In this document: piece by piece, positions 1 to 52,606 of the stretch
Layout: each line of letters begins with the position of its first letter
Position numbering within the stretch: position 1 is the first letter of the stretch
NCBI GenBank assembly: GCA_977020255.1
Contig: CDROCS010003202.1
Location: 186,001 to 249,265, forward strand
From: Obrimoposthia wandeli
Lineage: Eukaryota
Length of the DNA: 63,265 bases
Reading direction: 5' to 3'
The notes under the pieces: model-generated
Database searches by the model: none
The model's input: only the letters and a program-made list of their open reading frames with translations
Told to the model about the DNA's origin: nothing
Translations under genes and position numbers: made by a program

Positions 1-317
1 GTAAGTGTGTGAATTTGTTGTGTATGTGTGCGGTTTGTGCATATGTGCACATTAATACCATGTGTCCATGGACATGTTGCCCACCGCAAAGTCTGAGATA
101 AGTATGCCATCCCCCTGTTGAGCCCGGCAGGGCGAAACCGGTTAAGCCGGTCGGGGATTGACACTAGAATTATCTTTAAAAATACCAAAGTGCATTATTT
201 CTTAATTGAAAAATATTTCCCTAATTAAGGAAATCTCTTAATTAAATTATTTCTTTTTAATCTTTAATTTTTCTTTTATTTAAAAATTGTATAAATATTT
301 CTAAAATATTCTCAACA
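1..317 (-). mobile_element. Right end of an LTR of the hammerhead-bearing Gypsy LTR family (cut by the window edge)
   Basis: Ends in CTCAACA at 317, like CCCAACA at 4533 and 8741. It shares the hammerhead and the downstream 'ccaaagtgca...tttccctaattaaggaaa' block with 8570-8650. Confidence 0.7.
109..158 (+). ncRNA. Type I hammerhead ribozyme (core variant CUGUUGA)
   Basis: ATCCCC-CTGTTGA-GCCC(GGCA)GGGC-GAAA-CCGG(TTAAG)CCGG-TC-GGGGAT. All three helices pair perfectly and the GUC cleavage site falls after C152. The core has A6 changed to U. Confidence 0.85.
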
Positions 318-2560: not shown

Positions 2561-3283
2561 GATCTTAATTAATTTTTCCTTAACTTGATCTGGAATCTCT
2601 TTTGCGATCTCCCCGTTCTTTTATCATCAAACACAGAAGTGCGACCATTTTAAAATACTTGACATACGTTTTCACAGTAGCATAACATAAAGAATCACCA
2701 TTGTACATATATTGAAGCATTTTATTTATTTCAGTTGCGTTTAGTCCTTGCAAAACAAAAAACTTGATAACACTACACTTAATTTATCAAGTATTTGAAA
2801 ATGTTCCACTAAAAATATAAACAAAAATAACACATTAAAATAACGTATATAGTTATTACCTATATATAATTATGTAGTTATATGAAAAAATAAAGGATTG
2901 TATCTATCATTTTTCTATAGTAGGCTAGACTTATTAAATATACCACGTATATAATTACTTAAAGTAAAATTAATAAATTTTATTTTACTTTCTTTTGAAA
3001 GTATCAAATGAATTACGTAAAATGTTAAAAGTTGAAATTATAAAGATATTTTGATTAAATTTAATATTTTCAAAATCATATGAAATTTAAAGAAGAGTGT
3101 GATAAAGAGACTAATATTTACAGTTATAAGAGCAGAACGTAGTAGTTTTCTTTGTTAAAAAAACTATAATGTAATGAGTAGGTGGAGTAGGTCTTCTAAA
3201 AGCGTACATGTGAGTTTGGAGTATGCTTGTATGTAAAAATATATGTTAATAAAACTGGTAAAGAAGAAAACGAATTAGTATAT

Positions 3284-3736
3284 TAATCAAATAATTTCTG
3301 AAACGCTTCCGAAAATCAAATAATCTCTGAATTGTTTCCGTAAATCAAATAATTTTGGTTCAAATAATTTCTGAAACGCTTCTGTAAATCAAATAATATC
3401 TGAATTGTTTCCGTAAATCAAATAATTTTGGTTCAAATAATTTCTGAAACACTTCTGTAAATCAAATAATATCTGAATTGTTTCCGTAAATCAAATAATT
3501 TTGGTTCAAATAATTTCCGAAACACTTCGGTAAATCAAATAATATCTGAATTGTTTCCGTAAATCAAATAATTTTGGTTCAAATAATTTCTGAAACACTT
3601 CTGTAAATCAAATAATATCTGAATTGTTTCCGTAAATCAAATAATTTTGGTTCAAATAATTTCTGAAACACTTCTGTAAATCAAATAATATCTGAATTGT
3701 TTCCGTAAATCAAATAATTTTGGTTCAAATAATTTC
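3284..3736. repeat. 73-bp composite tandem repeat (about 6 units) within the LTR
   Basis: 'caaataatttc(t/c)' recurs at 3361, 3434, 3507, 3580, 3653 and 3726. Each unit is built from aatcaaataat sub-repeats. Confidence 0.95.
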
Positions 3737-4353
3737 TTTTAATTTTTGTTGAATCTTCTAAAATTTATTAGCACAAGAAAATAAATTATCCTTTATAAAT
3801 AGGTAATGTCAATATCCACACAAAACTGCAGTATGGTCTGGACTAGGTGTGTGATCACTGTCACCGACCGCACACACACACAACGAACCACAATCACCGC
3901 AGAAGAGACAGATGGATCCAGAAAAGGAGATCAGAGATCCATAGACAGGCAGCAGTTCAGGGCAAAATGAAAAAATCAGGACACCAGATTGCACACGGGC
4001 ATGTGCATGTGCAATTTGACTTTGGCAGCACTGATAGATTTAGGATGCGAAATCGACGGCTGATAGAACACACACACAGTCATAGATTCCAAATCAATAA
4101 CACAACACACAGACACCGTCTACACAGCATAAATGTCATTGGCAGTACTGCTGGCATTTTACAGAGATAGAGGGAGAAATGAGACCGCAATTCCCACTTA
4201 GATAACATCGACGGCGGCTGTTGTTGATGTTGTTGTTGGTAGAGGTATGATGCTGGCCGATGATGGGGAAGGAAGGTGGAAGAGGACCAAATCTGCTGGG
4301 AGGTCCGGAGAGCTGGGCGGAAAATTCACTGTGGTTAATCTTGTTATCAAGCC

Positions 4354-4406
4354 GCCTTCCTGATGAACCTGGCAAGACGAAACGGGACGTCCACCCCGTC
4401 GGAGGC
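4354..4406 (+). ncRNA. Type I hammerhead ribozyme with degenerate helix II
   Basis: GCCTTC-CTGATGA-ACCT(GGCA)AGAC-GAAA-CGGG(ACGTCCAC)CCCG-TC-GGAGGC. The core is intact and helices I and III pair, but helix II has two mismatches. Cleavage would fall after C4400. Confidence 0.75.
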
Positions 4407-4749
4407 TGACAAGTAAAACCTCCCTGACTGTGGGCACTTCAGTTAATGTCAATTTTAATTGACTAAAAATATTTATTAATTTTTATTAATTTTTTAATTA
4501 ATTAATGTATGCAATTAATTTTTTAACCCAACAATCCTATGGGGGTAAACAAAGTCAGACCTCTGACGTTTTTATAAACAAGAATAGAAAGAATGTCCCG
4601 TTTAGTACATAGCTGTCTAACGTGACTTTCACAAAAAATTACTCGAGTCTGTTAATGTAAAGATAAAAATTAAAACATTGATTTTACACTTTGCATCCAC
4701 AAGCAATAATACATTTAGTGAATGATGCATAGTAAAATATCTTACTAAT

Positions 4750-5943
4750 CTAAAGGTTGTCCTCAGAATCAAAGGAGCAAATGTCTACGACTTCAGGCAG
4801 GTTATTATTGGCAATGCAGGGGAGAGAGACCGTCAGTCCATATTCTTCTATAAGCTCTTGCTCTTTATGGAGGAAAATCTTTCGGGTCCATTGTGTGTCT
4901 ATGAGGCTAGAGTGGGTATTCTTTTGTATTTCCTTATTGAAATACCACAAAACCATTCGAGCAAGTCCAGCTTGTTCTCTACGGTTCATTTCTAATTGAA
5001 TAGTCTGTGTTGCTCCTAGATCGACCGTGTGCGAAAAATCGTTTTTCTGTAGTCCTAAAACTTTGAGATCGTTGGTTATTCCCGTCTCTACGAAAATATT
5101 GTCTCTTAGCAAGGATTGAAGGCGTTCTAACACTTCGACAGAATCAGGTTGGTTTCTTAACTTCCGTTCGTTAAGGCCCATTATTCTTGTCACATAATTC
5201 CTGATTCTGTCTCTGCTATTGCATTTTGTATCCAAAACGATCTGTCCGCTTCTATTCATTATAGTAATGCTGGCTAGGGTGGGTTGTTTATTCATCTTTA
5301 CTACCATTTCACAATCGACAAAAAATATTTGAGGATTGTTATGGATGATGTTCAAATGGCAGACTTGTACGGGATTAGGTCGCACATTTTGTTCTATGAA
5401 TAATATGTTATTTCCACCCGACAAAAGAATCATCAAATCGGGAGTTATTTGATGTCTCATCAACCGGTAAGAGTGGTTTTGCAGGAGAAGGACAGAGAAA
5501 TGTTTGCTTTTCTTGTGTTTTAAAAATCCACGGCCTTTTGCTACGTGAATCTTAATGTCCGTGCATGTAGGTAAGAATTTCATCAACTCAAACAGTCTTT
5601 GTTCTGTTGGCTTTTTGCTATTTTTGTTGAGAATTATGCTTTGTCTTGGGGTGTCTCTTAACTTGATGCTATTTGGAAGCTGGGTCTTATTGTCAAAAAT
5701 CTTTATTCCGTAATGTTTATGGAAATACCTTGTTCCAAACTGCCTTATTTTTCCATAAAGGAACTTAGCCATTTTTGCCATTTCTGGACGTTGTTCTGCT
5801 AACTGGACTAACTTCTCTCTCTTACCCTGCGGCACAACCTGCCAGTTCAAATGAAGATTCGTGCTTGTGGGTTCCATCTGTAGGGTATACAGATATAGTA
5901 AAAATAAAAGTTGATTTTTATATGCAAATATAAATATTGTCAA
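4750..5943 (-). CDS. Accessory protein with a C-terminal DEDDh 3'-5' exonuclease (REX4/ISG20-like)
   Basis: 397-aa ORF with 'FFVDCEMV' (ExoI), 'LASITIMNRSGQIVLDT', 'IRNYVTRIMGL', 'GITNDLKVL' (ExoII) and 'HSSLID' (ExoIII). Confidence 0.85.
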   Translation of the reverse strand: MTIFIFAYKNQLLFLLYLYTLQMEPTSTNLHLNWQVVPQGKREKLVQLAEQRPEMAKMAKFLYGKIRQFGTRYFHKHYGIKIFDNKTQLPNSIKLRDTPRQSIILNKNSKKPTEQRLFELMKFLPTCTDIKIHVAKGRGFLKHKKSKHFSVLLLQNHSYRLMRHQITPDLMILLSGGNNILFIEQNVRPNPVQVCHLNIIHNNPQIFFVDCEMVVKMNKQPTLASITIMNRSGQIVLDTKCNSRDRIRNYVTRIMGLNERKLRNQPDSVEVLERLQSLLRDNIFVETGITNDLKVLGLQKNDFSHTVDLGATQTIQLEMNRREQAGLARMVLWYFNKEIQKNTHSSLIDTQWTRKIFLHKEQELIEEYGLTVSLPCIANNNLPEVVDICSFDSEDNL

Positions 5944-6302
5944 ATGTCTATCAAATGAAATGTTCCTGTCAGTTTATTTGTCTCTTTTTGTTACTCAAAA
6001 GTCTGTAAATCATTTTAGTCTTTCATGTAACAAGCTCAATCAAACAGGTATATAAATAAGATATAATTTTTCATTCTTTAATACATATTCTTATTACTGG
6101 TGTTTTCAATATCAATATATACATACTTATATAAATATACTCATTTTTATCTATTCTTAATTTTATTATTACCACTTCAACTAAAGCTAATGAATATTAA
6201 TACCCATTCATAAACACATTTCCCTTCCAAAAACATGCCATAAGCTCAAACTCATTCTCAATTTTCTTTTATTTTATATTTTAATTTACTCACTGGATTT
6301 TA

Positions 6303-6611: not shown

Positions 6612-7782
6612 TTTCTAGAATAAGTCTTAATAAGTCTTAAGTTCATTTTTATTATTTTCTATTTAAACTAAACACATACGCACTTTTCTTCATCTACATT
6701 ATAAATACTTTATTTTATGACTAGTTTTTATTTTAATATTTCATTTATGTATTTTCTATGACAATTTTATAAAGGTTTTTCTCTTTTCTGTTTACTATTC
6801 TCAATTATTATATTTATTGACACGTTAGATGAATTTGAAGAGCTAGGAATGATGGATGTCATAAATGGGCCAGGTGGTTCACAATACTTAGTCCGATAAT
6901 GATTCTTGAAAATTGTGTTATTTTTTACTTTAATGATCTTCCATGTTATTTTTATGATTAATGTGCAGGTTTCGATTATTATGATTGTTATAAAAAATTC
7001 CTTGTTATTTATATTTTTGAGTATTTTTGTTTACTAAAGTGTATTTTTAGACTTTCATTAAATGATTTATAGGGTATTGTTTCTGTTGTTTTTAATTTTT
7101 TGTTAATTGTTTTATTTTCTGTGATATTACTTTGATTTGTAATTTCATAAGTCTTTGTTGTGAAGGTTGTAGTATGTGGTATTTGTTTTATGGTTGTTTC
7201 TTTGATATATTTCCTAATTGTAATTACTGACCATTGGCCACAAAAAATCGTAGGTTGGTATAATTTGGATATTTTATTTCCTAAAATCCTTAAGTTTGTT
7301 AGATTTTTACAAGTCTCAAATTGTTGTCCCCATTGTCTATACATTATTGGTTTGTTAGTAATTACACATTCTCTATTATCCATAATTATTTTTTCTGGAT
7401 ATCTTATATTTTTTATAGTTATATTTGTTCTGATTTGTGATTTTTCTAATTGTTTTTCTGCGTCTTTCCAAAAATGAGCATTATGTCCTCTATATCTAAT
7501 TCTAATGAGGGTTTTATCAAAATTATCTATTTTAAGTTAAAATTCCCAATTTATCATGATTTGATGTTTTGTTATATATTTTGCTGTCGTTTTTAATAGT
7601 GAAGCTAAGTATAAGTGTTAAGTGGGGATTGATGTATAAAAACTGATTCCAATAATAATATATTCAATTCAAAATAAATATATGTTTTCCAACTCCAGTA
7701 TAGTTTTTACAATAATTTGAGATTGATCACAATTTTAATACAACAAAATAGTTTCTGTAATAATTTTATATTGATTACTATT

Positions 7783-7945
7783 TGTAATTGACAATAGTTT
7801 CTGTGGCAATTTGGATAATTTATTCAGATAAACCTGTAATTGACAATAATTTCTGTAGCAATTTGGATAATTTATTCAGACAAATCTGCAATTGACAATA
7901 GTTTCTGTGGCAATTTGGATAATTTATTCAGATAAACCTGTAATT
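7783..7945. repeat. 52-bp tandem repeat (about 3 units) inside the solo LTR
   Basis: 'tg(t/c)aatt' unit starts at 7783, 7835, 7887 and 7939. Confidence 0.9.
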
Positions 7946-8517
7946 TTTATGTATTGACGATGTTGAGATTCGTCTTTTCACTATTCTATTTATAGAATAG
8001 TTGATCCGGAAAATAGTCCATTGCGACCGGGGGTTGGAGAGAGGGAGAGAGAGAGATAGACAGATAATTCTGCTGGTAAAAATAGATGGCACACAACAGC
8101 AGAACAGTCGGCAATCTCGGCTCTGTACACACAACTACAGATGTAAGGCCGGAAAATATTGCCGCCTGTTTGGCTTCTGGGCAGAGAAATCCTGGACAAG
8201 TGGGAAATCTGGCTTACATATAATACATACACACCAAACAGAATGTGAGTGAGTGACTAGGGAGAGTGAGTGAGCAAGTGATTGAGTGAGTGAGTGAGTA
8301 GTGAGAGTGAGTGAGTTGAGTGAGTAGTGAGAGATGTATTTCATGTCTGCTGTGTGAGTGTGTGTGTGTTGAATTGTGCACTTGCGCACACCAACATCAC
8401 ATGTCGTCGATATTCGTCGGCACATGAAAGGGGGAATCTTTCCTTCTTTTCTCTGGCTTTTTATTATTGTTATCTCTGGCTTCGCGGAATCCACCGCGAA
8501 GTTAGAGATAACAAGCC

Positions 8518-8569
8518 ATCTCCCTGATGAGCCCGGCAGGGCGAAACGGGCTTTTTCCCCGTCGGAGAT
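8518..8569 (+). ncRNA. Type I hammerhead ribozyme, fully canonical
   Basis: ATCTCC-CTGATGA-GCCC(GGCA)GGGC-GAAA-CGGG(CTTTTTC)CCCG-TC-GGAGAT. It has the canonical CUGAUGA/GAAA/GUC core and three perfect helices, with cleavage after C8563. Confidence 0.95.
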
Positions 8570-9199
8570 TAACCACTCTAAACTAAAATGCCAAAGTGCA
8601 TATTTTATCTAAATAGAACTTTTCCCTAATTAAGGAAAGTTCTTAATTAATTCCTTAATTAATAAATTCTCATTTTTTAATTTTTATATATATATATATA
8701 TTTTTATTTTTTAAATAAATATTTATAAGATATTCCCAACATAAGTGAGTTTCTATAATTCTTTCATAGAGTGTTATATTCTTTAAATTCGACTTAACTC
8801 TTATTTTGTATTGTGTCTCTGTTCTTAAAAATGGTATTATATAATTTTTTGATTCGATTTTTGTAAATATTTATTATTTGATTTTTTTCAGATTGTATTA
8901 TTTGAATTCTTCCTAATTTTTTTGTAAAGAGGGATATTTTCAACTTTATTGATGTGATTTCAGGTATTATTGTAATAAGTCCAAAATTTTTTATGAGATG
9001 TGTTGATGAGTCGTATCTATTTATTTCGTCTTTTACTATTAATTGATTTTCATTCAGGTTTATAGCGTTTACTTTTATTAGGTTACTTTTTACTGCAACA
9101 TATATTACTAATAACATCATTATTTTACATATTTCTTTTATTGAGATTTTTATTATATTTCTAGTTTGATGACACAAAATAGTATTGTTTTGTTTTTGT

Positions 9200-12100
9200 G
9201 AGTTTTTTATAGTTAACATTTGTAAAACAGTATTATTGTTAGTTGATCTTAAATTATATTTGTGACTTTTTACTTTTGTATTTTTCTCAGGTATTTCTCG
9301 ACATCTGCTTATATGTGTTCTTATTTCTTTTGATTTTGGTTCATTATCTAGTTTAGCTGTTATGTTGGTTCCGTTGGTACTAATAACTGTATATGGTCCT
9401 TTGTATGGTTTTGATAATTTGTGTGATAATCCTACATTGATTTGTGGATTGTGAATCATTACTTTACTTCCGATTTTTATATTTGATGGCTTAGTTCTTC
9501 TATCATAATATTCTTTGTAATTTTCTTGTATGTTTTTTACAAATAATTTAGCTTTTTCGAATGCTAGTTTTATTCTTTCTCTTATTTCTATTTTGTATTC
9601 AGGTATTTCTAGGTACTGTGTAGTAGGTTGTAGTAATGTTAGGTCAATATGCATTTGAGGATCTCTGAGGAACATAAGGTAAAAAGGTGTTTCTCCTGTA
9701 GATGCATGTACTGATGTTCTATATGCAAAAGGGCATGGAGGTATATGTAAATCCCAATCTGTTTGGTTGTTGTTTGTGTATGATGCCATCATATCTTCGA
9801 GGGTTCTATTAAATCTTTCTACTAATCCGTCGGTTTGAGGGTGATATGGAGTTGTATTGATCTTTTTTATGTGAAAAGTTTCAGCTATTGACGCTAATAC
9901 ATTATCTATAAATTCAGGACCTTTGTCGGTTAATAATTTCCGGGGTGCACCGAAAGTAAAAATAATTTTTTCGACTAAAACCTTCGCGATGGTTTCAGCC
10001 TTATGATCATGTGTTGGAAAAGCCTCTGGCCATCTTGTAAAATAATCAGAAAATACTATTATATATCGATTTCCTCGGGTGTTTCAGGTAATGGCCCCAT
10101 TACATCCATGGCAACAGTTTCCATGGGGGCTGATGGATACGGTATTGGTTTTAAAGGTATTTTTGTGGTACGTAAAGTGTTTTTTTGTTTAAGACATATT
10201 TCACAAGTATTACACCAATTTTTTACATCTTCTTTCATATCAATCCAATAATATTTTAAGTTTAATCTCGAATGTGTCTTTTTTGTTGAAAGATGTCCTC
10301 CTAAAGCTCCGTTATGATATTGAAGGAGTAATTGGCCTTGTATTTCTTTAGGAATAACTAGTGAATACAGATTTTTATCGTTTAGATAATGTAAAATATT
10401 GTTACTGAATTTATAACGAGATTCATGAATTTTTAAATGTTTTCTTAATTTTTCATCTGTTGGAACTTGATTGATGGTGATGTACTTAATTATTTGTTGT
10501 ATTTCCGAATCTTTGCTTTGAAGATCGGTGATTACTGTTTCATCATATCGAGCTTTGATTATTGTAAAAAGATTTAATTCGATGTCATTGGAATTTATTA
10601 CATTTACTTCTTCTCTTATTCTAGATAGGCAATCTGCGTTGGCATTTGATTTACCTTTTCTATATTTAATTTCAATATCATATTTTTGTAAAATTAACGC
10701 CCATCTCATTAATCTAGATGTCGTATCTTTATGATTTAGTAGCCACTGTAATGGTCGTTGATCGGTATAGACGTGAACTTATCGACCTAATAAGTAATGT
10801 TTAAAATGTTCCATTGCGAAACAAATAGTGAGGCATTCTCTTTCTATAGTTGAATAATTTATTTCGTGTTTTTTAAGACCTCTGTTTGCGTAAGCTATCA
10901 CATGATCTTTTTCGTTATTATCTTGTTGTCCTAGTACTGCTCCTAACGCATAGCCACTTGCGTCAGTCATTACTAAAAATGAATTGTTGAAATTAGGATA
11001 TCTAAGTATAGGTTTTTCAATCAATTTTTGTTTAAGTACTCGTATGACTCTTGTTGTTCCGTTTCCCATTCAAACTTTTCATCCTTTTTAATAAGTTTAT
11101 TTAACGGTGTCGCTATTTGTGCGAAGTTTCTGATAAATCTACGATAATATCCTGCAAGTCCTAAAAATTCTTGTATATTTTTTACTGTTTTTGGGATCGG
11201 AAAATTCTTTAATTTTTCTATATTACTTTCATCTGGTTGAATTCATTTTGCAGACACTGCGTGACCTAGATAATTCACTTTGTCTTTCATCCATTCACAC
11301 CTTTTTGGTTTTAATTTTAAACCTGCTATTTTTAATCTAAGAAATACATTTTCTAAATCTTTTAAGTGTTCTTCAAAATTTTTTGAAAAAATAAGAATAT
11401 CGTCAATATAGACCATGACATGATCGGCGTCCATTAAAATGTGGCTCACGCATCTCTGAAATGTTGCTGGAGGACCTGTTAATCTAAAAGGTAAAACATT
11501 AAATTCGTATAATCCTTCTCCTGTTGAGAATACTGTTTTTTCTTTGTCTGATTCATCTATTTCTATCTGCCAATATCCACTTTGTAAATCTAAAGTTGTA
11601 AATATTTTTGCAATTTTTAATTTATCCAAGATTTCATCGATTCTTGGGAGCGGATATGTGTCTTTATGTGTAACCTCGTTTAATTTTCTGTAATCTACGC
11701 AAAATCTTAGTGAACCATCTTTCTTTTTTACTAAAACAACTGGAGATGTCCATGCTGAAAAACTTCTTCTTATGATTTTATTCTCTAACATTCCTTTTAC
11801 CTGTCTTTGAGCTTCTTCTCTGTAAGCGTATGGGATACGGTAAGGTCGTTGTTTAATTGCTGTATTAATAGTTAAAGGAAGGTTATGTTTAATTAAATCT
11901 GTTCGTCCAAGGTCATATTCATTTTTTGCAAAAATTACGTCATATTTTTCTATTAATGATTTTAGTTTTGATTTCTCATAATCATTTAATTTAATATTTT
12001 CAAATTTTACAGTGGAATTGTCTTCTATTTTTTCATTATTAATTAATTCTATATTTTCTATAACGCTTATTTTTCCAAGGCACATTCCTTCTTTTAGATG

Positions 12101-12490
12101 AATCTCGTTTATGTCTGCATTTAGTATTCTGATTGGTATTGTATTATTTTTTATTTTACAAATTATATTTGGTAGAACGTAATTTAGTGTTTCTTGTTGA
12201 TATTTATAAGGTTCGAATAATATGTCTTTTTCTGTAATTATGTTAGTTTCTAGTTGTAATATTGTTTCTGTTCTAGGTTGAAGGATGATGTCTCCTTTTA
12301 TTTCTAATTCGTATTCGCTTTTAGCGTTTGATCTGTAAATGTCTTTAATTTGATTTTTCTCGAAGTCAAAATGAAATTTTTTTCCTAATTTCCTTAATGT
12401 ATATATTCCAATTATCATCTGGCATGGACAATTTTTCATTATTCTAGTAGGTATTTTTATAAATTTATCTCCTATTTTAAAAATGCAATC
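9200..12490 (-). pseudogene. pol: Gypsy pol (C-terminal half of protease, RT, RNase H, integrase) with frameshifts and stops
   Basis: RT 'TLDLQSGYWQ' and 'YIDD'; RNase H 'VMTDASGYALGAVLGQ'; integrase zinc finger 'HNGALGGHLS...CNTCEIC' and 'VAMDVMGP'; GPY/F-like 'LSKPYKGPYTV'. Confidence 0.95.
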
Positions 12491-12507
12491 TAATTTACCA
12501 ATAATAT

Positions 12508-13530
12508 TTACGGGTTGACAAATTTTGTTGGTGTAGTTTTTGCATTATATATTTTTTCTTTACTTAAATATATTCCTTTATAATTAGTTGTATAAATAGA
12601 GTGTCCACATCGGGATTCCTCTTTCTTTTTAATAAATCGCATTCCAGAACCTTGTTCTGTTGACATTAGAATAGTTGGGGTTGATGTTTTTTGAATTTTT
12701 CTTGTCCTATATTTTTTATGTATATCTTTTGGCACTCTTTGATCAAGTTCCGGGTCATCTTTAAATTTTTGACCTTGAATTATTTGAAAATTTTCAGATT
12801 TAAGGAGTATTAATTTACATTGGTCTGTTTTTACCTTATAATATAAAATTGAGGATCCTGTATTGCAATGACTTATATTTGCTTCGCAAAATGGCATAGT
12901 TACCATATTATTTGTAGATGGGTCAAATGTTGCTTTGAACGTTCTTAGTTCTACTTCAAAGTTTTTTATAACTACTAAACCACTTTGTTTGACTCCCATC
13001 ACAACGTATGTGCCTGTTGTACATGTACCGTCAGATTTTATTGTTCCTATTACTGTAATCATTTGTTGTATAATTTTATTTTTTACTGCTCGTACTTTAA
13101 TTTCTCTATCTATTCTTAGTTCTCCTGTTGCAAAATCGTCCTTACAATTTAGTGCATCGACAATTATTGATATTTTTCCTAGTGCAGGTTTGACAATTGA
13201 GTTATGGCTGTGTTGTCCGCAATATGTTATGAATGTTTCTACGTGTACCCTACACTCGAAAATTTCTGTATTTAGGAAATCTGTTTCCTGGTATACATGG
13301 AATAACTTGGTGGTTTTGATTTTTACTTCGTTTGGGTCGGCATTAGCACATTGTTGCAAATCCATCAAGGAATATTTATTTTGAATACTATATTTTGAGC
13401 AATCATACGCTTCCAGGGCATTAACTGGTTTTATTATATTTGTAATTATATATATCGTAAATATTACTTGAATTATTTTCCATAAATTCTGGATGATTTT
13501 GTTGAAATTATAAGTATTTTTAAGAGTTGT
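12508..13530 (-). pseudogene. N-terminal half of a chuvirus-like / herpes gB-type (class III) fusion glycoprotein
   Basis: Signal-like 'LWKIIQVIFTIYIITNNIKPVNA' is followed by 'LEAYDCS...SLMDLQQC', 'ECRVHVETFITYCGQHSHNS', 'GTIKSDGTCTTGTY' and 'FCEANISHC'. This cysteine spacing is recalled from chuviral G proteins. The ORF is truncated at a junction into protease. Confidence 0.7.
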
Positions 13531-15200
13531 CTTTTTACTATTTTTTGGTGTTTTTTACTTTTTGATTTTGTATTTTGTGTTTGAGTAGTTTGATTTATTG
13601 TTTTACTTATTTGTGTTCTTTTTTCTAATGTTAGACAACCATTTCTAAATATATCTCTTAATTCCGATTGAGAGTTGGTACTATTTGTGTTTTGCTCATT
13701 GTTTTGGTATTGTTGATGTGTTTCTTTGTAGCGATTATCTATTTCTTGTTGTCTTAATCTCATCAATGTGACTTCTTCTGTTTCCTGAGTTATATCAGTG
13801 TTTTCAATAGTATGTATTGGGTTTCTGTAAGCATATTGTTGATTTTGATTGTTAAACTGTACTGTTTTTTGAATCTGTGGTTGTGGTTGTTGTTGTTGTT
13901 TTATTGTTGTGTTACCAAATTGGTTCATCATTGTATTTAGTTTGCTACATTCATCAGTATTGTGATTTTTCATATTACAAATTTTACAGAATTTTGTATT
14001 AGTATTAAAATATTTAGCTTGATTATTAAAATTATTAAAATTATTATATGGGCTTCTAAAATTACTATTTGCATTTTTGAAATTATTATTTGGATTATTA
14101 AAGTTATTATTTTGTGATCTTATATTATTACCTTGTCTGTATAACAATTTTCAGCAAGTTTCAATAGTATGATTGTCTTTTTTACAAAATCTACAAAATT
14201 TGTTTGTTATTTTATGACAATTTTCTATTGTGCGATTTTGCAGTCCACAATTTGTACATTTCTGGAAAGGTCTTTGTGTAATTTGTGAGTCTGTATAGTT
14301 TCTGTTTGTTTGATTTCTATAAAAGTTATTTGTCGGTGGTGTATATTGTTGTTTGTTTTGGTAATTAGATTGTGAGTTTGGGTTGTAGTTTTGAGTTTGA
14401 TTGAAATTTGGTGGTGTTGTTGGTCTTTGTATTTTTTCAAATGTTAATGCTGAAATTTCAGATTATTGTAACTTGTTTAATCTTGTTTCTACAAGTTGAG
14501 CTTTATTTACAGCCTGTTGAAAATTTTCTACTTCTAGTAGTGCTGGGTGATTTTTTATTTTATTGTTTAGCCCATATAGAAACTGATGTAGGAGTAAGCG
14601 TTCTCTTAAGACTTCCTCAATTCCGGGAAATGATTTTAAGGCTAATCTTCTTAATTCAACTGCAAAGATATTTGTGGGTTCTCCCATATGTTGTTCACGT
14701 TGCCTAAATTGGTTAAGGTAATTTTGTTCTGATTGTGCTCCTAAAATAATATTTTGAAAATTCTGGACCAAATGAACCCATGTGTCTTTCTGTTCATTAT
14801 TTAATCCTCTATAAATTGTTAAGGCAGTGCCCTTTAAATACGCCGGAAAAACCCTAAGTTTCTCTACATTAGTCCATTCAAATGCCTGAGCAAATGAATC
14901 AAATCTATTTAAAAATTCAGGTAGTGAAGATTTATCGCCATTGAAAGCGTCTAATGGAACATTTAACTTATGTTCAACCATTATTTGAGGTTGATTGATT
15001 ATTTGTTCGTTGTTTATTTGTACAATATGTGGTTCTGGTACGGCCACTGCTTCCGTTATCTCTGACGAACTATCCGAGTCAGATGTTTGTGGTGTAGGTA
15101 AACTCTCTGTATTTGAAGTTAATGTTAGGTTAAGATGTTCTGAGAGTGAGGAAGTCTGTGTAATTAATCGTTATTTGTTGTAAAACTGATTTGTGATTTG
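13473..15200 (-). pseudogene. gag: Gag (capsid domain plus zinc-knuckle-like motifs), frameshifted
   Basis: 'LDAFNGDKSSLPEFLNRFDSFAQAFEW' and 'FRQREQHMGEPTNIFAVELRRLA' match the Retrotrans_gag pattern. Knuckle-like 'CKICNMKNHNTDEC' is present, with a second near 14150-14200. Confidence 0.9.
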
Positions 15201-16639: not shown

Positions 16640-16657
16640 TCTTTGTCGAACTCACCA
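16640..16657 (-). promoter_or_regulatory. Primer-binding site (TGGTGAGTTCGAC...)
   Basis: On the minus strand, TGG starts 3 nt after the LTR end AACA. The same TGGTGAG junction recurs at 28680-28690. The cognate tRNA was not identified. Confidence 0.7.
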
Positions 16658-16660
16658 AAT

Positions 16661-17509
16661 TGTTAATAAAACTGGTAAAAAAGAAAACGAATTAGTATAT
16701 TAATCAAATAATTTCTGAAACGCTTCTGTAAATCAAATAATCTCTGAATTGTTTCCGTAAATCAAATAATTTCTGAAACGCTTCTGTAAATCAAATAATA
16801 TCTGAATTGTTTCCGTAAATCAAATAATTTTGGTTCAAATAATTTCTGAAACGCTTCTGTAAATCAAATAATATCTGAATTGTTTCCGTAAATCAAATAA
16901 TTTTGGTTCAAATAATTTCTGAAACACTTCTGTAAATCAAATAATATCTGAATTGTTTCCGTAAATCAAATAATTTCTGAAACACTTCTGTAAATCAAAT
17001 AATATCTGAATTGTTTCAGTAAATCAAATAATTTTGGTTCAAATAATTTCTTTTAATTTTTGTTGAATCTTCTAAAATTTATTAGCACAAGAAAATAAAT
17101 TATCCTTTATAAATAGGTAATGTCAATATCCACACAAAACTGCAGTATGGTCTGGACTAGGTGTGTGATCACTGTCACCGACCGCACACACACACAACGA
17201 ACCACAATCACCGCAGAAGAGACAGATGGATCCAGAAAAGGAGATCAGAGATCCATAGACAGGCAGCAGTTCAGGGCAAAATGAAAAAATCAGGACACCA
17301 GATTGCACACGGGCATGTGCATGTGCAATTTGACTTTGGCAGCACTGATAGATTTAGGATGCGAAATCGACGGCTGATAGAACACACACAGTCATAGATT
17401 TCAAATCAATAACACAACACAATGTCATTGGCAGTACTGCTGGCATTTTACAGAGATAGAGGGAGAAACGAGACCGCAATTCCCACTTAGATAACATCGA
17501 CAGATAACA
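16661..17509 (-). repeat. 5' LTR, truncated (lacks the hammerhead-containing segment)
   Basis: Near-identical to 3244-4212 apart from tandem-array copy number and a short internal deletion. Homology stops at 17501. Confidence 0.85.
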
Positions 17510-18340
17510 TAAGTTCATTTAGGACCTTGAAGGCATTAGCTTTGAAAGTCTGAAGATCAGGAAAATTTATAGTGATGGTTCAGGGTCAGGGTTATCCTAT
17601 AGTGATAAATACATTTCAATCGACCGTCAGATTGAAAATATGTAATTTTGAAAATACGTTACTAAAAATAGAAGAACAAAGAACATGAGTCAAAAATTAT
17701 GTCATTAATGAATCATGGTCTTTGTTCTCTGATAACAAAGACTATGAGTCATCAATTTGAAAATAAATGCCACGATACATCGAAGAGAGAAGGGAAAATG
17801 TATTTGTTTCAAAAGACAAGTCTCCCCCTACTGACGCATACTTAAATCTGCTGCACATAAACCACATTTTTTGATTAAAATTAGAATTGAATCCAGCTTT
17901 TGTTCACTGGATTCTTGACACATTGGATTGGTATGTAGCGTTGAAATGAGTCATAAACTCTTTCTTGGCATTCCTTGATATTTTAAAAGTATATTTTTTT
18001 AATTGTATTGCAGAAGAATTTAGAGTTATTTCATTCATTTCGATTGAAAAACCCTTAGTATTATTACGTACAGTACGAACCATTGTTGTTTGTTTTGCTA
18101 GCAAATCTTTAGAAAAACCAATACTGTCAAAAAATTGTCACACCTTATATTTTTTGCCTTTCCTCTAAGCGGATACATAATTTTTTTCACAACTTGGTCG
18201 TCAAGGCTTTCTCTATTCTGCTTTGACGTTTTCAACCAGGATCCAAAATTTGAGGCCAAATTTGTCCGACTATTTAACCATATATTCAACAAATCTACAT
18301 CGTGCTTTCATTGGCATAAATTGCTTTACAACACATAGTG
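17510..18340 (-). pseudogene. piggyBac-like transposase remnant with its 3' terminal region
   Basis: 'VVKKIMYPLRGKAKNIRCDNF' and 'KQTTMVRTVRNN' resemble the PGBD 'GRNITxDNFFTS...TTLVGTxRxN' motifs. The terminal part matches 940-1258 in inverted orientation. Confidence 0.7.
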
Positions 18341-35000: not shown

Positions 35001-38000
35001 AAATCAAGCTGTATGCACATTGGCCCAGAGTCCCGAATCACATTCTCTGTCAGTTGGACGGCCCTCAGTAAGAAGTCTCTGTTGCTGTTTACTATTTACA
35101 TGTTGTCTTTCCACCTCCAGTCTGCCTGTGTCCACTGCCAATATGTGGTACATGCTGTGCGACATGGAGAGCTCTTTCGATGGTATACACTGTGAGTTTC
35201 AATAACCAGGGATTTATGGGATTTTTATTGGGTGCTCACACATAAATGCAAACTGCAACATTTATGTATTTTTTAAAATTTTAATAAATTTACTTTTACT
35301 GTAGGTTGGCTATATTTTGAACTCAATTGTTGCTTTGAGTGGTCAAGTAAATTAATTTCATTATCTTTTCGTAATTATTTCTAATTCAACAAATCAATTT
35401 TGTTATAATTTGTCTTATGTCGTAGTTATGACTGCATTCTGCAGCACTAAATTGTTATTTACTGTTAATCGCATTTTTCCAATCAATATTAATTTAATTT
35501 TTAACATAACAAAACAAGAAACATGTATTTAATCTAGCTTCGGAATGTAGTTTTTCACAAATGCTTTTAGTTTTAAGTTAAAACTTTTAACTGTTTGAAT
35601 TCATTTAAATTTGATTTTAGTAATCATCAACTACTTTTAAAAATAAATAGTACAGCTTATGAATAAATATAAATTGTTTTGTGAAACTATAATTAATAAT
35701 GTCAGTGACGTACAATGTAGTCACCCTGGAATTTCGTATATATTTCAATTATCTCTTTCAAATTATTAGTAGCCAGAATTTACTTTATCGCTTAATTTAT
35801 ATTTTTGCTGGATACATTTCGTTATACATAATCCTTCAAATATGGAAGACTAGTAAAATATTATTAACAAATAAATACGTACAGGGCCTTAGTCAATAAT
35901 AAAAAAATCATTATAAGTGATACGTAATCAGGAATGAGCAACACGAAGCTAACGCATCTGTCCGGCGTGCAAAGCATCTACATTTAACACTGGACACATT
36001 TATATATAAATAAAGCGTGATTATCTTCATTCTTCAATGATAAGCTCTTTCTTTTATTTAATTTAAAATATAATCTTAATAATTTAGTGTAAAGTAAGAT
36101 TATTAAATATATAGTGCTTGAATCATGATGTACATTTTCAGATAAAACTCTACGCAAATTGCTCAAGGCGTTTTTGGTTGCTGAAAAGCCAACGGACATC
36201 GTACGGGACAGTAAACTGCAAGAATGTGAGTACACCGGAATATTATCTTTATATCAAATAAACATCAAATGGAAGTTATTTATTCCAATACTAAGCTGAA
36301 TAATTTTCTTTTTTTATGGCTGACATTTACCAAAAATTGTGGAACATTTAAGAAATAAAGTAAGTTTTTATATTTTAACAAATTTATCATGAAATTCTCC
36401 TTTAATAAGAGTATTCAGGGGAAAATCTTGTGAATAAACTGGGTTTGCCAGTTTGACCTGTAGCGCTGAGAACTCAGTTAATCCAAAATATAAATTAAAT
36501 TAAACGAATAGTTTTCATGAAGCTTTTACTAATACGTTTGTTGCTAAAATCAGTTCCTGTACATCGCAACTTTATCATTTGAAGCAGTTACGTATGGATT
36601 ATTTACCAGAAACCAGTAACCAGGCTATTTATACAATTGCATTCACTAACGCACTATATCAGGATACTCTTAATACAGCACTGTTGTCTAAATCATTTAT
36701 TAGATATTATTACTATCAGAAGCCATTTCTCCTTATTATAATTATGACTATTTTGAACAAATTTTTAGGTGTATTTGAAACCGGCTGAGCAGTGTCTGTC
36801 GATAAAGTAAAATATTAAATGTTGATTGTATATTTTACTACTTTTAATAATCGGTTTTAAATTTATGGATAACTTAAGGTTACTGCTCTTTAAAAGAAAA
36901 AACGGTGATAATAAAGCCCTTAAAGAAAGAAAATCGGGAGCTATGTGAGCATTATAGAAAACATGTATAAACATAATTGAGAATGCCCCACCAGTCCTCA
37001 TTAGGACTTCATACGAAATGGATGGGAGGAGACGGGGAAAATAAACTATTAACTCTATTTTGATGAAACAGTTGTTTAATGTATTTATTGATGATTAGTT
37101 GATGGTTAGTAGATTATTTGATAGAAATTGGTAAAACGTACTGAATCATTTTCATATTTAAAATTTAGGCGAAAGCAAACCTAATGATTTCATAATATAT
37201 TGTGCAATAAAAATTAGAAAATAGGGATAAAGTGTAACAGGAATAGGCGACAATGGTTAGTCATGACAAACGCAATACAACATACATGCTAACTCGATGT
37301 ATTCGACAATTCTAAAATATCCCTTATAAATGACCTAATACCAAACATTAATGTTATTTAATTTCAGTAAACAGCTTTACATCCAGCTTCGTTTCATTAA
37401 TTTCAGCATGCCATTAATTAGTTTAATCAGATTTAATATTCCCGTGCAGAGTAGCTTTTAGGCACAATACAGAAAACTGAAGACATCAGATTAAATTATA
37501 TTTAGTGATACTGTTGATATCAAAATTAAAAACATTCTTCAGATGATACTCACTTATTATCTAATTTCTCTATAGTATTTCCACATCAGTTTTTGAGAAT
37601 TGTTTTTTGTCTGTTTATCTAATCCACAAATTCAAAGTTCAGATTAAATGACATTCAGAATTTGAATTATAGTTTCCAATAAATTCAGGGTCTACCATCA
37701 ATATAAGCACAAACAATAATAAGTCACCTTCTAGTTCATGGTATGTTGTACAAAAGTTATAAATTGTAATCGCGAATCGTTGACAGTTGCTTTTGAGGAA
37801 ATGATACCGATTCTCTACTTCTACATCATATAGAAAGTCCAACAGATTTTTGATATTTATGTTGCATTTATCTTCATTTAACAATGTAAGTGGCCTTCTT
37901 CTGTATCCTCCTAATTTATCTCTAACGACGTAAGCTTTCTTGCTTCTCTGAATTTTTATGGATTCTTCGTCTTTTTCCACAGACCACCAAAATGTATCAG

Positions 38001-41000
38001 TCTTAAACACCACTAACTGATGATGGAAAACCAACGAAAGCCCTTGAATGCCGGTTAATGGAACTTTATTTCGATTAACTTCAGTGATTTTCTCAAATAT
38101 ATCTATTTCCTCTGCAATTTCGTCAAAGGTGTACGGTCTGAATTTGCCATTATCTTCCAATTTGAAATGAACCTCCTTTGTCCAACAATTTTCCTCCACA
38201 TTTGATTTAGTTGAACTCGAAGCCATATTGAATAACAGAGTTTAACGGATCCAAAAGCGTTGTTTATTTTTCAATACAGAACTTGACATTTCAACTGTCT
38301 GTTATTTATAGAAAGTCCAACTGGATTTTTCACTGTGCTGTAAGAACTCAAAAAGAAACTGAAAAGGGTATTTAAAATTTACTTTCAAACGAATTAAGAG
38401 TTACATAATTTTATAGAAGAAAATTTTACCATTATTTTAATAACACAATATATTTTTTTAATTAAAATAAATGCACTACTTAGTGAAGGAGAAAAACCAA
38501 AATTAACCAAATTACAACACTTTCTGAAATCTTTAAGTTTCCCTTCAGTTTAAATTTAGAATATATACTTGTTTTCTCTTGTCTTTTTGCTTACTTTTCG
38601 TCATGTTTTCTTTCATAAACTTTATAAAGTTGAATGATTAACATGAATATTTGCTATTAAATATATTTTAACTCTGATAAACTAAGTGATCTCCAAAAAC
38701 AAACCGATCTCCATTAAGCTAGTACAAAATACATAATAAAATATATAGAATCATTCACAATAATACTTTTTCTCTTTTCTGAAATTTTCTATATTAAAAA
38801 TGTAGTTTTCAAAATGACTACTAAACCTAGAAGGAAATATGTTATGTTTGGTTGAATCCCATTATAATAACAGACTACAAAATCTTTGTTGTAGTGGTTG
38901 ACCAGTTTTGTAGTGGCTTACATGAGTTTGAAATTGGATTGATTACACTACAATACATGATTTTGTTTAACAAAAATTATTTATTATATGCTTTAAGCAT
39001 TTTTAATGTATATTTCAAATTTGTTTTTACTTCTACATCTAGATTTCTTTTAAAACACATTTGAAGATTTTTTGTTGTTGAAGATGATAGTTATTCAACT
39101 GATATTTATGCCTATTGCAGCTCTAAGCGAAGGTTTGCCACCATAATGTAGCCCATCCACGATATAGTGGGACGGCATATTTGGGAGAATTTAAAATTCA
39201 CAAAGGAAGGATGTAAAAAATATATAATTTTAAATGCATTTGTAACGAAAGGAAGAGCAAGAATCTCATAGTGGTTTCACCTTATTATAATAAGTTATTG
39301 CATTTATTTATATTACAATCTGCGTATATTTTGTGCATCTATATATATACCGGGTTATTCACAAGTAACCTACCATCTTAAATTCCATCTAGTATGAAAA
39401 GAACGATTCAAAATGTTATAGTACACATATTTCGAAAATTTACAATTTCGGATTAACTATTGAGCACATGTTCCAAAACTGCTACTAACAGACTCGTCGA
39501 TTGGTCTTCCACCTTTCGACAAATTGTGCACTGTGCCTTCTTTCTCGAATTTCGTTATATGATTTCTGACAGTGTGTCGATCAGGTAAGTTTTCTCGTTT
39601 CTTTATATTCATGGAAGTACCAAAGGCTCTGATTTTTGTAAAAAAATTTCGCAAAGAGGATACATTCTTCGACAGAAAGCATTTCGGTGACAGAAAGCAA
39701 ATTTAAAATTAAAATCTTAAAATTAAATTAAAGCATTAAAACAAAAACAAAATGAATATTATATCAAAATTCATAAATCTGATTTATCCAAGAGAACAGC
39801 CATAGAAAAGAATTTGTTTAAATATATTTGTATCAATTTAATATCAATTTAAATATGGTAGGTTACTTATGAATATCTCGGTATATGTGTTTATGTTTAT
39901 TTGTAATTTTGTGTGTAAAGTTTATGGTGATGTGATACAAAAAATGAATTTTATTTTTGAATTTAGGATTTAAAATATAAAATTACACTGGTCTCATGAA
40001 AATGGTGATGTTTAATTTCCCGACAATCAATTGCCTGACTTTTTAAAAATTATTATCTTTTATTAAAATCATCCAGAAGTTTATTGCCAGTTTTATCACA
40101 TCCATAACAGTTTTATTTTATTTTCACCAATTCAAAATATGTTTCTCTTTTATTTCTTTTTAGATTCTAAAAAACTTTTCTAATTTTACCTTTAACTTTT
40201 TTTCATTTTTTTTTTAAATAATTTTTTAGTACACTTATTTTCCTGCAAATAGGTTTTTAATTGCGTTGGAGTGTTGGGTTACAATAAATTAATTTTATTT
40301 TTAGTATAAATACTTATGTCGTTTATTATAAATTCATTTTCCTAATCTAACAGTATGATCGCGTTGATGAAGGATAAGTTAATGAGTTTGAAGCGTTAGA
40401 TGAATCATGTTTAGTATTGAAGATGTTGTACAGTAATTATTCACCTATAAGGGGTCCCACCTATAAGGGTGTCCGGTCACTGAAAATTTCACGCTTCACC
40501 TATAATAGTGAAGTAATGCAATTGATTCGGTGTCGGTCTCTCAGAACTTATACATATTTTAGTATAATCCCCACATGGCCTGATTTATTGATTTTCTGAA
40601 AATTAGGTGTTGATTTATTAGAGATACGAGTCAGATAGAATGTGTGAGTTGTGATGCTAATTATGTTCTCTATGACTGATAAACTTACATACAGTTAATT
40701 TAATATCATTGTGCAGTGGACTCAGTGCAAATCAATCAGCCGCTGCTGAAGTTGACACAGCCTCCCATCAGCCACAAGATCGCCCATCAGCTCGGGCGTG
40801 TAACTCCTGCATTGACTTCTTCAGCCAATAGATCGCCCAGCCACTCGAATAACAGCTCGCCTCTCAACGACAAGATGGTCCAGACGATCCTCGAGGTGAG
40901 ATAACCCGATTACACCGGTTTCATTTGGAAATTGACTCTACAATTGCCTTTTCAGGATTTTCTTTCTTTCAAAAGATTAATTGGTGCTTTTCTAGTGTAA

Positions 41001-50687: not shown

Positions 50688-52471
50688 AGCTCGTGACAAG
50701 AAATACTTATTAACCTATTTATCAGTCAAATTTCCCCCCATTTGTGATAGTTAGTGAATTTCGATATGGTGGATATTTATTTTCAGGAGACCTTGTTTTG
50801 TGTACTTTGATCATTTGTGAGTCTATTCTAATATGATATATTTAATTGGTACAATTTACAATTTAGTCATCACAATAACCGCTTTCCTTTTTTCTTGAAA
50901 CTTTTTCAACAAGTTTCAGTTGACATTAACATTTTGACGTTTAAAACTTCATTATGTACATTATTATTTTAAAAATTATATTTATATTAATAGTGTAGAC
51001 AGATAAACCATCTAGTATTATATACTGGGAGATTCTAAATACCTGTTATATATTCAATTCCTACTTACGGGTGGTCATTAAAAAATCTCAGTATTTATAT
51101 GTTCCAAATATTAAGAGGAATATACTGTATATTAATGAAATATGTTTTATTATATGAAACGATTATTTATTCAATGAAAAGAAGAGGCTGAACCTAAATC
51201 TTTCACCTTGACAGACATTTAATTGCCCCCATCATTTATTGAATACATTCAATTCATTCTTCAACTTTTCAACACAATATTGAATTCGGTTTCTACCTGC
51301 TTCAAATATTTCACCTGACATTTTTTTCCGATACACCTCCGCTTTCAGGAGACCACATAAGAGCTCAATTAAGGGTTGTAACATTTCCAATTTACTCAAT
51401 GTTTCTAATATGTATTTTGCATATGACGAGGAAGCCAGATATGACCAAAAATTATTGTCACTGTGATATTTTTGAATACATTTGTACAAATCTCTTTATG
51501 ACACTTTCTTTGGCACCTATTTCCTTATTGGTAGCTTTGGATGATGGAGCTATTTTAATACATTGGTCTCATTTTCATACGATATCTTATTCAGGTAATG
51601 CTGTAAATTTTATATATTTTTGTAAAATCTCGTTTGGGTAATCTTTCTCCAAGGGTATTGGAAACCAACTTCATATTTAACTGGTTCATTTTGTTGAGTT
51701 TTCTATTCGAAACTGCGATTAGATCCTTGTATGGAGGTCGCCAACGTGAGTTCTGTAGCGATGGGGATTACAGATGTTTGTGGCCTACCTATTATTTTCT
51801 TACTTAATTCGAGTCTAAATCTGAAGATTTTTTATGTTTTGTAGGTGTGGTATGTTATGACTTGTGTGCAATATAACTGGGAGGGCCCTTAAACTAATCT
51901 AGTGTGACGTAGGTCTATAGTTGCTTAGCTTTTATTTTATAGAAACTCTGGTAAAAAACCTTTAGCTGGTTGAACATTGAAAAGCCGGAGACAAGCGACA
52001 ATAACGATATTCTTCCGCTAATATTGGGACACAACAATCCTCAAACACCCCAGTGCTTTGAATACCATCACGTGGTTGTCCCTCGGCCGACCTATAGTAT
52101 AGAGGTACTTAAGTCTACGTGGGTGGTGATTCGAAAATCAACTATATGGGTTATTTAGGAAACAACAAAAATAAGTTCATTAATTTACACAAGTAGGAAC
52201 TTTCTGAAATAACTAAATCATTTACAGTATTCGAAATTGTGATGACACTATCTTACTCAAATATTCAAAACACCAGTCCAATACTTTTACAATAATCAAT
52301 GAAATTTTCTGGTTTAACTCTTGTAAAATGCAATGAAATTACTAATTCAGATTACTTATACAATCAAATTTTAGGTTCAAATACTTTTATGAAAATCAAT
52401 AAAATACTAATTCAGATTACTTGTTAGTAGGTGGATGTGTCCGGTCTAATCCACACCCCCCTCACCCCCTT

Positions 52472-52541
52472 TGTCCTTTAAAACCGTGCATGTGTGTGGA
52501 GTGAAATTTCACTCCACACACATGCACGGTTTTAAAGGACA
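52472..52541. repeat. 70-bp perfect palindrome
   Basis: TGTCCTTTAAAACCGTGCATGTGTGTGGAGTGAAA followed by its exact reverse complement, centred at 52506/52507. Confidence 0.95.
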
Positions 52542-52606
52542 GGGGGGAGGGTACCCCCCTAAAGGTTTTTCGCGCCTTTCGGCGCGAAGGGCTCGGGACT
52601 GACATT

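Follow-up and report, generated by a model that had tools for sequence, protein, structure and literature searches.

The self-cleaving ribozymes known from retroelements (R2, L1Tc, Penelope and the retrozymes) process the element's own sense transcript, as far as the available accounts describe them. Among the systems close to the family considered here are the plant LTR retrozymes, with which it shares a hammerhead in each LTR, TG...CA LTR ends, a 4-bp duplication, a primer binding site (PBS) and Ty3/Gypsy machinery. As described in the accessible parts of the reports, the plant elements are non-coding, shorter than about 1 kb and mostly of hammerhead type III, carry the ribozyme on the strand of the PBS (tRNA-Met), and accumulate as circles (PMC4918200, PMC7761336). 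Type I hammerheads in animal retroelements, which our family also has, are known from the Penelope-like elements, including the Terminons, and from the metazoan non-LTR retrozymes. These lack a true LTR, a PBS and a DDE integrase, and their ribozymes are often minimal or dimer-dependent and process their own transcript, according to the same kind of partial source (PMC7761336, PMC6765202).

The window, by which we mean the whole stretch of 63,265 nucleotides of Obrimoposthia wandeli DNA that was analysed (30.7% GC, from an assembly of 1.35 Gb), contains a broken Ty3/Gypsy element copy on the minus strand, reaching from a 3' LTR at 3244..4533 to a truncated 5' LTR at 16661..17501. Its features, and those of two further LTRs, are as follows.

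1..317: end piece of a third LTR type, with the LTR edge at 317
109..158, plus strand: hammerhead of the third LTR type with a changed residue at core position 6; cut site after 152
3244..4533, minus strand: 3' LTR of the Ty3/Gypsy element, with TG...CA ends
3285..3737: 73-bp tandem repeats in the U5-side (downstream) part of the 3' LTR
3790..3803, strand-neutral: palindromic TATA-like box of the 3' LTR
4354..4406, plus strand: type I hammerhead of the 3' LTR, antisense to gag-pol, cut site after 4400
4750..5973, minus strand: extra ORF coding for a 3'-5' exonuclease of the DEDD type, matching Pfam RNase_T and weakly similar to ISG20 and SDN1
7616..8741, minus strand: solo LTR of a related subfamily, nested within the element, with a TAAG target-site duplication on either side
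7981..8000, strand-neutral: palindromic TATA-like box of the nested solo LTR
8469..8512, plus strand: hairpin just upstream of the next hammerhead, recurring in other copies of the nested-solo and third LTR types
8518..8569, plus strand: canonical hammerhead (type I) in the nested solo LTR, with its cut site after 8563
8794..10778, minus strand: RNase H end and integrase, in two frames, broken
11243..12544, minus strand: reverse transcriptase (RT) frame
12508..13554, minus strand: part of an env-like fusion glycoprotein domain (PF24664), located between gag and pol
14463..15170, minus strand: Gag, a weak Retrotrans_gag match
16645..16657, minus strand: PBS, matching the 3' end of this genome's tRNA-Trp(CCA)
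16661..17501, minus strand: 5' LTR, cut short upstream, without the part that bears the hammerhead elsewhere

A preliminary description of this DNA had placed the ORFs and the PBS on the minus strand, and this is borne out for gag, env, RT, integrase, exonuclease and PBS alike. The PBS is a 13-nt complement of the tRNA-Trp(CCA) 3' end, two G-U pairs included, and because it too lies on the minus strand, the assignment does not depend on the ORFs alone. The 3' LTR opens with an AT-rich stretch of 130 nt, followed by a GC-rich U3, the palindromic TATA and a U5 side made of tandem repeats. The description had also taken 3244..4533 and 7616..8741 as the two complete LTRs of a pair. We rejected this pairing, as the latter belongs to a different subfamily and is a solo LTR that has a duplication of its own. 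Nor could this copy release a unit-length antisense RNA, as had been suggested, because its true 5' LTR is truncated and has lost the ribozyme part. A Mariner-type transposase remnant was noted among the stretches 1738-2369, 1075-1257 and 17510-17691, and the 5' LTR is cut short at 17501 by an insert similar to 1075-1257 but inverted. Elsewhere the window holds Polinton-like DNA polymerase B fragments (60884-62968), a perfect hairpin with 41-bp arms (52466-52547) and a weak PPPDE peptidase-like frame (37639-38241).

Three plus-strand hammerhead cores are indeed located at the cut sites proposed earlier (152, 4400 and 8563), and the distance from 4400 to the LTR edge at 4533 is the 133 nt originally given. 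The hammerhead of the 3' LTR itself is less sound than it had appeared. It can be divided into stem I (4354-4359/4401-4406), core (4360-4366), stem II (4367-4378), the GAAA (4379-4382) and stem III, with a U at position 1.7 (4407), and core, stem I and stem III are all present. Two of the four stem II pairs, however, are mismatched, both adjoining the core, with computed pairing probabilities of 0.00-0.03, unlike the 25 other copies listed, which keep at least three of the four. Rfam at the gathering threshold finds nothing in the whole window. Hammerheads appear at the E-value level only, and the one at 4354-4406 is absent even there, while that at 8518-8569 reaches 32.4 bits against RF00163, just below the 34-bit cut-off. 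The 4354-4406 copy is thus no intact ribozyme; it is a damaged family member and probably inactive. Since stem II is broken here and core position 6 is altered at 109-158, the copy at 8518-8569 is the only one in the window predicted to be active, with 8563 the sole likely live site. The earlier statement that the hammerheads fold only on the plus strand is correct for the catalytic core and too strong for the fold as such, as the reverse complement forms a similar three-way junction without the catalytic core.

To see how far the arrangement extends, we turn to the family as a whole. A search of the genome with the RT gave 24,202 candidates, the best 150 of which all have at least 95% identity. 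The sample consisted of 79 of those 150, namely 19 stretches of 20 kb, picked mostly for long frames, and 60 stretches of 4.5 kb from the top of the list. Twin LTRs are present in 17 of the 19 long stretches and are 97.1-99.9% identical; the LTRs of the family have TG...CA ends and 4-bp target-site duplications, and the element is about 14 kb long with about 2,900 codons. Pfam gives the domain order protease, RT, RNase H, integrase in one other natural copy and in the window, and in the one copy scanned for it the PF24664 env domain is followed by aspartyl protease and RT in a single frame. The family is therefore a young, autonomous Ty3/Gypsy LTR retrotransposon of gag-env-pol layout with an additional DEDD exonuclease. 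Upstream of the 3' LTR there is a short purine run of the AGGAT type, preceded in the main type by a C-rich stretch; in the window (4534-4560) and in other copies the C-run leads into the short purine run, with no evident canonical polypurine tract. In one case the element is inserted in a tRNA-Trp fragment carrying CCA, and the tRNA-Trp genes are arranged on contig C5734 as about 37 tandem units, each 207 bp long.

A 3' LTR was recognisable in 65 of the 79 RT-anchored stretches (14 had none), and 58 of these 65 carry an antisense hammerhead; the other seven comprise three with a damaged relic or an interrupted LTR and four without any ribozyme trace. The cut lies 95-183 nt (median 111) inside the 5' end of the LTR in the 55 LTRs with a recognised start, where 50 hammerheads are intact and 5 damaged by the criteria of that analysis. 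Both LTRs bear a hammerhead in 13 of the 17 twin-LTR copies. No sense-oriented ribozyme was found within its own LTR among the 65 recognised 3' LTRs, and no intact member with the ribozyme sense to gag-pol among the family copies sampled; two apparent sense matches proved to be separate LTRs in opposite orientation and were rejected. More divergent hammerheads found with RF00163 are likewise antisense wherever a PBS or a family ORF fixed the strand, several of them being solo LTRs without a strand marker, and the RF00163 cut-off is exceeded at 6 of the 10 genome matches listed. There is in this way strong support for the original observation that a hammerhead lies at the edge of U3, antisense to gag-pol. 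Genome-wide, the motif occurs 6,507 times exactly and 10,320 times with up to two mismatches, well beyond chance (reversed control, 0), and in four contig runs of one sample the stretch 4340-4564 is common to far more copies than the U3 upstream of it. Outside this genome we found no relative of the family in a scan of IMG/VR, no relative by a word search with the exonuclease in other organisms, and no relative of RT, env, integrase, exonuclease or gag at any of 79 loci tested from a metagenome motif scan of at least 121 stretches, while a search of representative sequences gave two relatives at 29-30% identity over most of the length.

We examined the hammerheads for signs of selection on catalysis, using the 73 distinct sequences among 128 copies. 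All across the family they have the CUGANGA / GAAA / UH core and the three stems of type I, with stem I open. Stem cells are paired in 96.7% of cases in the distinct set, and both sides have changed in 9 of 15 pairs, spread over all three stems, against at most 4 in slid controls (a shuffle control is inflated by the relatedness of the sequences). G5, G8, A9, A14, A15.1 and U16.1 are invariant in this set, whereas position 7 varies (T/C/A = 43/24/6); the scanner tolerated one change per core word, which inflates the core conservation and leaves the position 7 variation unaffected. U1.7 is present in 124 of the 128 copies, and every one of the 128 has A as the last residue of loop II. A contact between U1.7 and loop II has been proposed to give fast hammerhead cleavage, although, in the accessible part of the same source, the need for U1.7 itself has been questioned (PMC11875169). 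With 120-nt flanks, ViennaRNA often prefers folds that break stem I. Because the stems covary, the core is nearly fixed and position 7 is free, catalysis by the family hammerhead is likely to be under selection, and selection on the sense strand would be hard put to explain this combination.

The ribozyme is nevertheless an accessory part of the element. Three copies lack it, with twin LTRs 98-99.5% identical to each other and RT DNA 98.3-99.4% identical to that of ribozyme bearers, and since such young twin-LTR copies exist, copying does not require it in cis. This speaks against a part in reverse transcription or integration and in favour of one in regulation or defence. A sister of the window element, on contig C5446, is about 98% identical to it over 12 kb and has the same nested solo LTR; with its own TAGA target duplication and a ribozyme core altered identically in both LTRs, it apparently moved while its ribozyme was dead.

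A source of antisense RNA is suggested by the promoter. Palindromic TATA-like boxes upstream of the cut had been noted earlier, and those at 3790-3803 and 7981-8000 are confirmed; the fixed spacing of 570-600 nt that went with them is not, as the distance from TATA to cut ranges from 384 to 1263 nt (median 646) in 42 LTRs, and we rejected a fixed distance on account of this threefold spread. The U3 between the two is modular and subfamily-specific. The asymmetric core of the palindrome is in the sense orientation in 19 LTRs, flipped in 18 and symmetric in 5, the pattern being unmatched in 16 of 58, and several LTRs have two or three TATA-like boxes, each within a conserved inverted repeat. A promoter whose TATA core can be inverted without harm is likely to fire in both directions.

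A ribozyme under apparent catalytic selection on a strand that is never packaged must act on antisense RNA, and it is antisense RNA that drives piRNA and siRNA silencing. Our preferred reading, to which we give a probability of roughly one half on the sequence patterns described above, is that the hammerhead cuts antisense RNA arising from the symmetric promoter or from host read-through and so lowers small-RNA silencing of the element. Plus-strand antisense RNA would be made from the palindromic TATA promoter, or from a host transcription unit or piRNA cluster at the landing site, and would be cleaved by the ribozyme co-transcriptionally. The capped upstream piece, antisense to the U3 and 3' UTR of the genomic RNA, would be left with an unprotected 3' end and decay; the downstream piece over gag-pol would be uncapped, would be cut a second time in the 5' LTR, and would make a poorer piRNA or siRNA precursor than an intact capped transcript. 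The antisense RNA would be separated and destabilised in this scheme, with the polymerase itself not stopped.

In human cells, according to the portions of the reports available, Pol II goes on after a ribozyme cut, the upstream piece is broken down beginning at its 3' end, and the downstream 5'-OH product is stable (PMC6938672, PMC2702688). Because ribozyme cuts leave Pol II running, the hammerhead is no terminator, and because the downstream product is stable in addition, antisense RNA over gag-pol may survive. Of the two options first put forward, the severing of antisense read-through to limit silencing thus stands as the most plausible purpose, and falls as a physical barrier. The direction of the effect deserves some caution as well: planarian seed-cluster precursors are already without poly(A), and uncapped pieces might be processed anyway, or even be better Zucchini substrates, so that the cut may either lower or raise small-RNA output.

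Activity of the ribozyme in vivo would be expected to purge introns of antisense insertions. We scanned 700,974 bases lying between exon matches of myosin, kinesin, dynein and SNF genes, and found no hammerheads and no family LTRs in this intragenic sequence, against an expectation of 3.4 exact copies (P 0.03; 0.18 should copies occur in pairs) or of 5.4 by a looser count; the identical motif scan recovered 47 hammerheads in 3' LTR stretches. Copies cluster, and some of the SNF gaps may span paralogues, which limits how these figures can be read. The absence is compatible with cutting of host pre-mRNA, if weakly so, and target preference or poly(A) signals could equally produce it. Two large contigs (C253 and C506) are dense in intron-poor SNF and HSP70 genes, unlike other contigs, and possibly belong to a co-assembled second organism.

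The exonuclease invites a wider, more tentative version of the preferred reading. By sequence, the closest solved relatives of this ORF, which occurs family-wide, are ISG20, plant SDN1 and ISG20L2 (E 0.001-0.005). Its versions in the family are 36-95% identical to that of the window, at RT identities of at least 95% among the copies listed, and judged by this it is a fast-changing, swappable module, possibly directed against small RNAs. The antisense hammerhead and the ISG20/SDN1-like exonuclease could together form an RNA-only counter-defence against transcripts of piRNA clusters and read-through, any such transcript that catches the element in antisense being cut at both LTRs, and so have enabled the family's roughly 10,000 LTR copies, a proposal that we think somewhat doubtful.

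Antisense RNAs control copy number in Ty1, and the ribozyme might here define the end of a functional antisense RNA, in one version closing a capped U3-antisense ncRNA at its 3' end, in the other giving a stable downstream regulator its 5' end. The symmetric TATA would suit such an RNA, as would a possible fold-back of the downstream product, in which GGAGG would pair with a CCTCC 8-34 nt beyond it, in 52 of 54 main-type LTRs. This fold-back would protect the 5' end, and the accessible human-cell data on stable 5'-OH products agree with that, although the same data have upstream ribozyme products degraded from the 3' end (PMC6938672, PMC2702688). The variation in TATA-to-cut length (384-1263 nt) across a modular, subfamily-specific U3 tells against it, and there is no conserved antisense ORF. 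A conserved U3-antisense ncRNA is disfavoured because that distance varies and the intervening sequence differs among subfamilies; the second option of the preliminary description, in which the hammerhead marks the 3' end of an LTR-derived antisense ncRNA, is weakened by the same spread. We consider a defined antisense RNA unlikely on the whole.

LTR replication copies U3 into both LTRs, and any U3 feature therefore ends up in both. The selected copy could be that of the 5' LTR, where it would cut upstream-antisense transcripts of the active promoter about 110 nt short of the host DNA, remove their cap and so limit mis-expression of neighbouring genes, with the 3' LTR copy merely the template. 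The extreme U3-edge position and the symmetric promoter fit such a host-sparing insulator equally well. The benefit to the element would be indirect, however, a ribozyme lying antisense in introns should itself harm host genes, and the cut does not stop Pol II in the accessible human-cell reports (PMC6938672, PMC2702688), all of which makes this explanation decidedly unlikely.

It is improbable, again, that the two LTR ribozymes serve to release a unit-length antisense circle. Most twin-LTR copies do have intact ribozymes in both LTRs, the two cut ends would re-form stem I, and plant retrozymes circularise likewise in the available description (PMC4918200). Neither an antisense-strand PBS nor a conserved antisense ORF was found among the family copies examined, though, and because the antisense strand has no tRNA-Trp PBS, priming in the manner of a retrozyme would be closed to such a circle, which would furthermore be a strong source of dsRNA and is ruled out for the window copy.

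We regard it as equally improbable that the ribozyme is a passenger from a retrozyme or Penelope-like element, kept for a reverse-complement structure useful in the 3' end of the genomic RNA or hitch-hiking on a recent expansion: the reverse complement does fold well, the expansion is very young (twin LTRs 97-99.9%) and ribozyme-less copies replicate, but the catalytic residues outside the stems stay constant, whereas position 7, loop III and, with compensation, all three stems vary. This pattern, for which a sense-strand structure gives no reason, recurs in LTR types with flanks that agree at only about 71% or cannot be aligned.

Cleavage of antisense RNA to lower silencing, if this is what the hammerhead does, would make a long-open question testable, that of whether transposons have means in cis of countering the piRNA trap. 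Natural controls are at hand in the genome in the form of ribozyme-bearing, damaged and ribozyme-less subfamilies with near-identical RT, and planarians are amenable to RNAi of PIWI genes. The roughly 10,000 strand-specific predicted cut sites may also shape the persistence of the family in host genes.

In the literature searched, no antisense hammerhead has been described in the LTRs of an autonomous element, although the supplementary hammerhead lists of the retrozyme papers may hold flatworm matches; with respect to that literature, the ribozyme-bearing LTR element is new in strand, autonomy and host. Its architecture has clear relatives. With Burro and GYPSM1, the giant Gypsy elements of planarians, it shares a fusion-type env in frame between gag and protease, tandem repeats in the LTRs and thousands of copies, as given in the part of the report at hand (PMC6431247). 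The same source gives Burro a length of more than 30 kb and a polyprotein of about 5,000 amino acids with apoptosis and ubiquitin domains, against about 14 kb and 2,900 codons here; Pfam found no such domains in the one copy of our family scanned. The present family has a DEDD exonuclease ORF in addition, and the available Burro text mentions no hammerhead (PMC6431247). This genome also has a Burro-size relative, a giant Gypsy of at least about 24 kb with 62% RT identity, lying antisense in a gap of a myosin gene on contig C1316; its frames measure 1255, 261, 3492 and 528 codons, env is placed ahead of RT, and it has neither a hammerhead nor an exonuclease. Among full-length named matches, a mitochondrial HSP70 of the host is most alike to that of Dugesia japonica (86% identity, against 78-84% for other animals and 90% for one unnamed protein), and together with the Burro-type elements this suggests a triclad flatworm, so that a planarian host is probable, as in Burro.

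An extra DEDD exonuclease ORF before the 3' LTR of a Ty3/Gypsy element is shared with the bdelloid Juno and Vesta, in which ORF3 is of the DEDDy type and no ribozyme is mentioned in the part of the paper available (PMC5408684), whereas the exonuclease described here looks DEDDh and ISG20/SDN1-like. Terminons carry exonucleases as well, also of the DEDDy type according to the partial sources (PMC7761336, PMC6765202). The other marks of Penelope-like elements and non-LTR retrozymes are not those of our family, which has LTRs, a PBS and a DDE integrase and has neither tandem 150-300 nt units nor a GIY-YIG domain, and whose ribozyme is a full three-stem one, antisense, within a true LTR. From the plant LTR retrozymes, whose paired LTR hammerheads it has (13 of 17) without being non-coding and below about 1 kb, it differs in being an autonomous animal element of about 14 kb, with a type I hammerhead and tRNA-Trp priming, and with the ribozyme on the strand opposite to the PBS and the ORFs.
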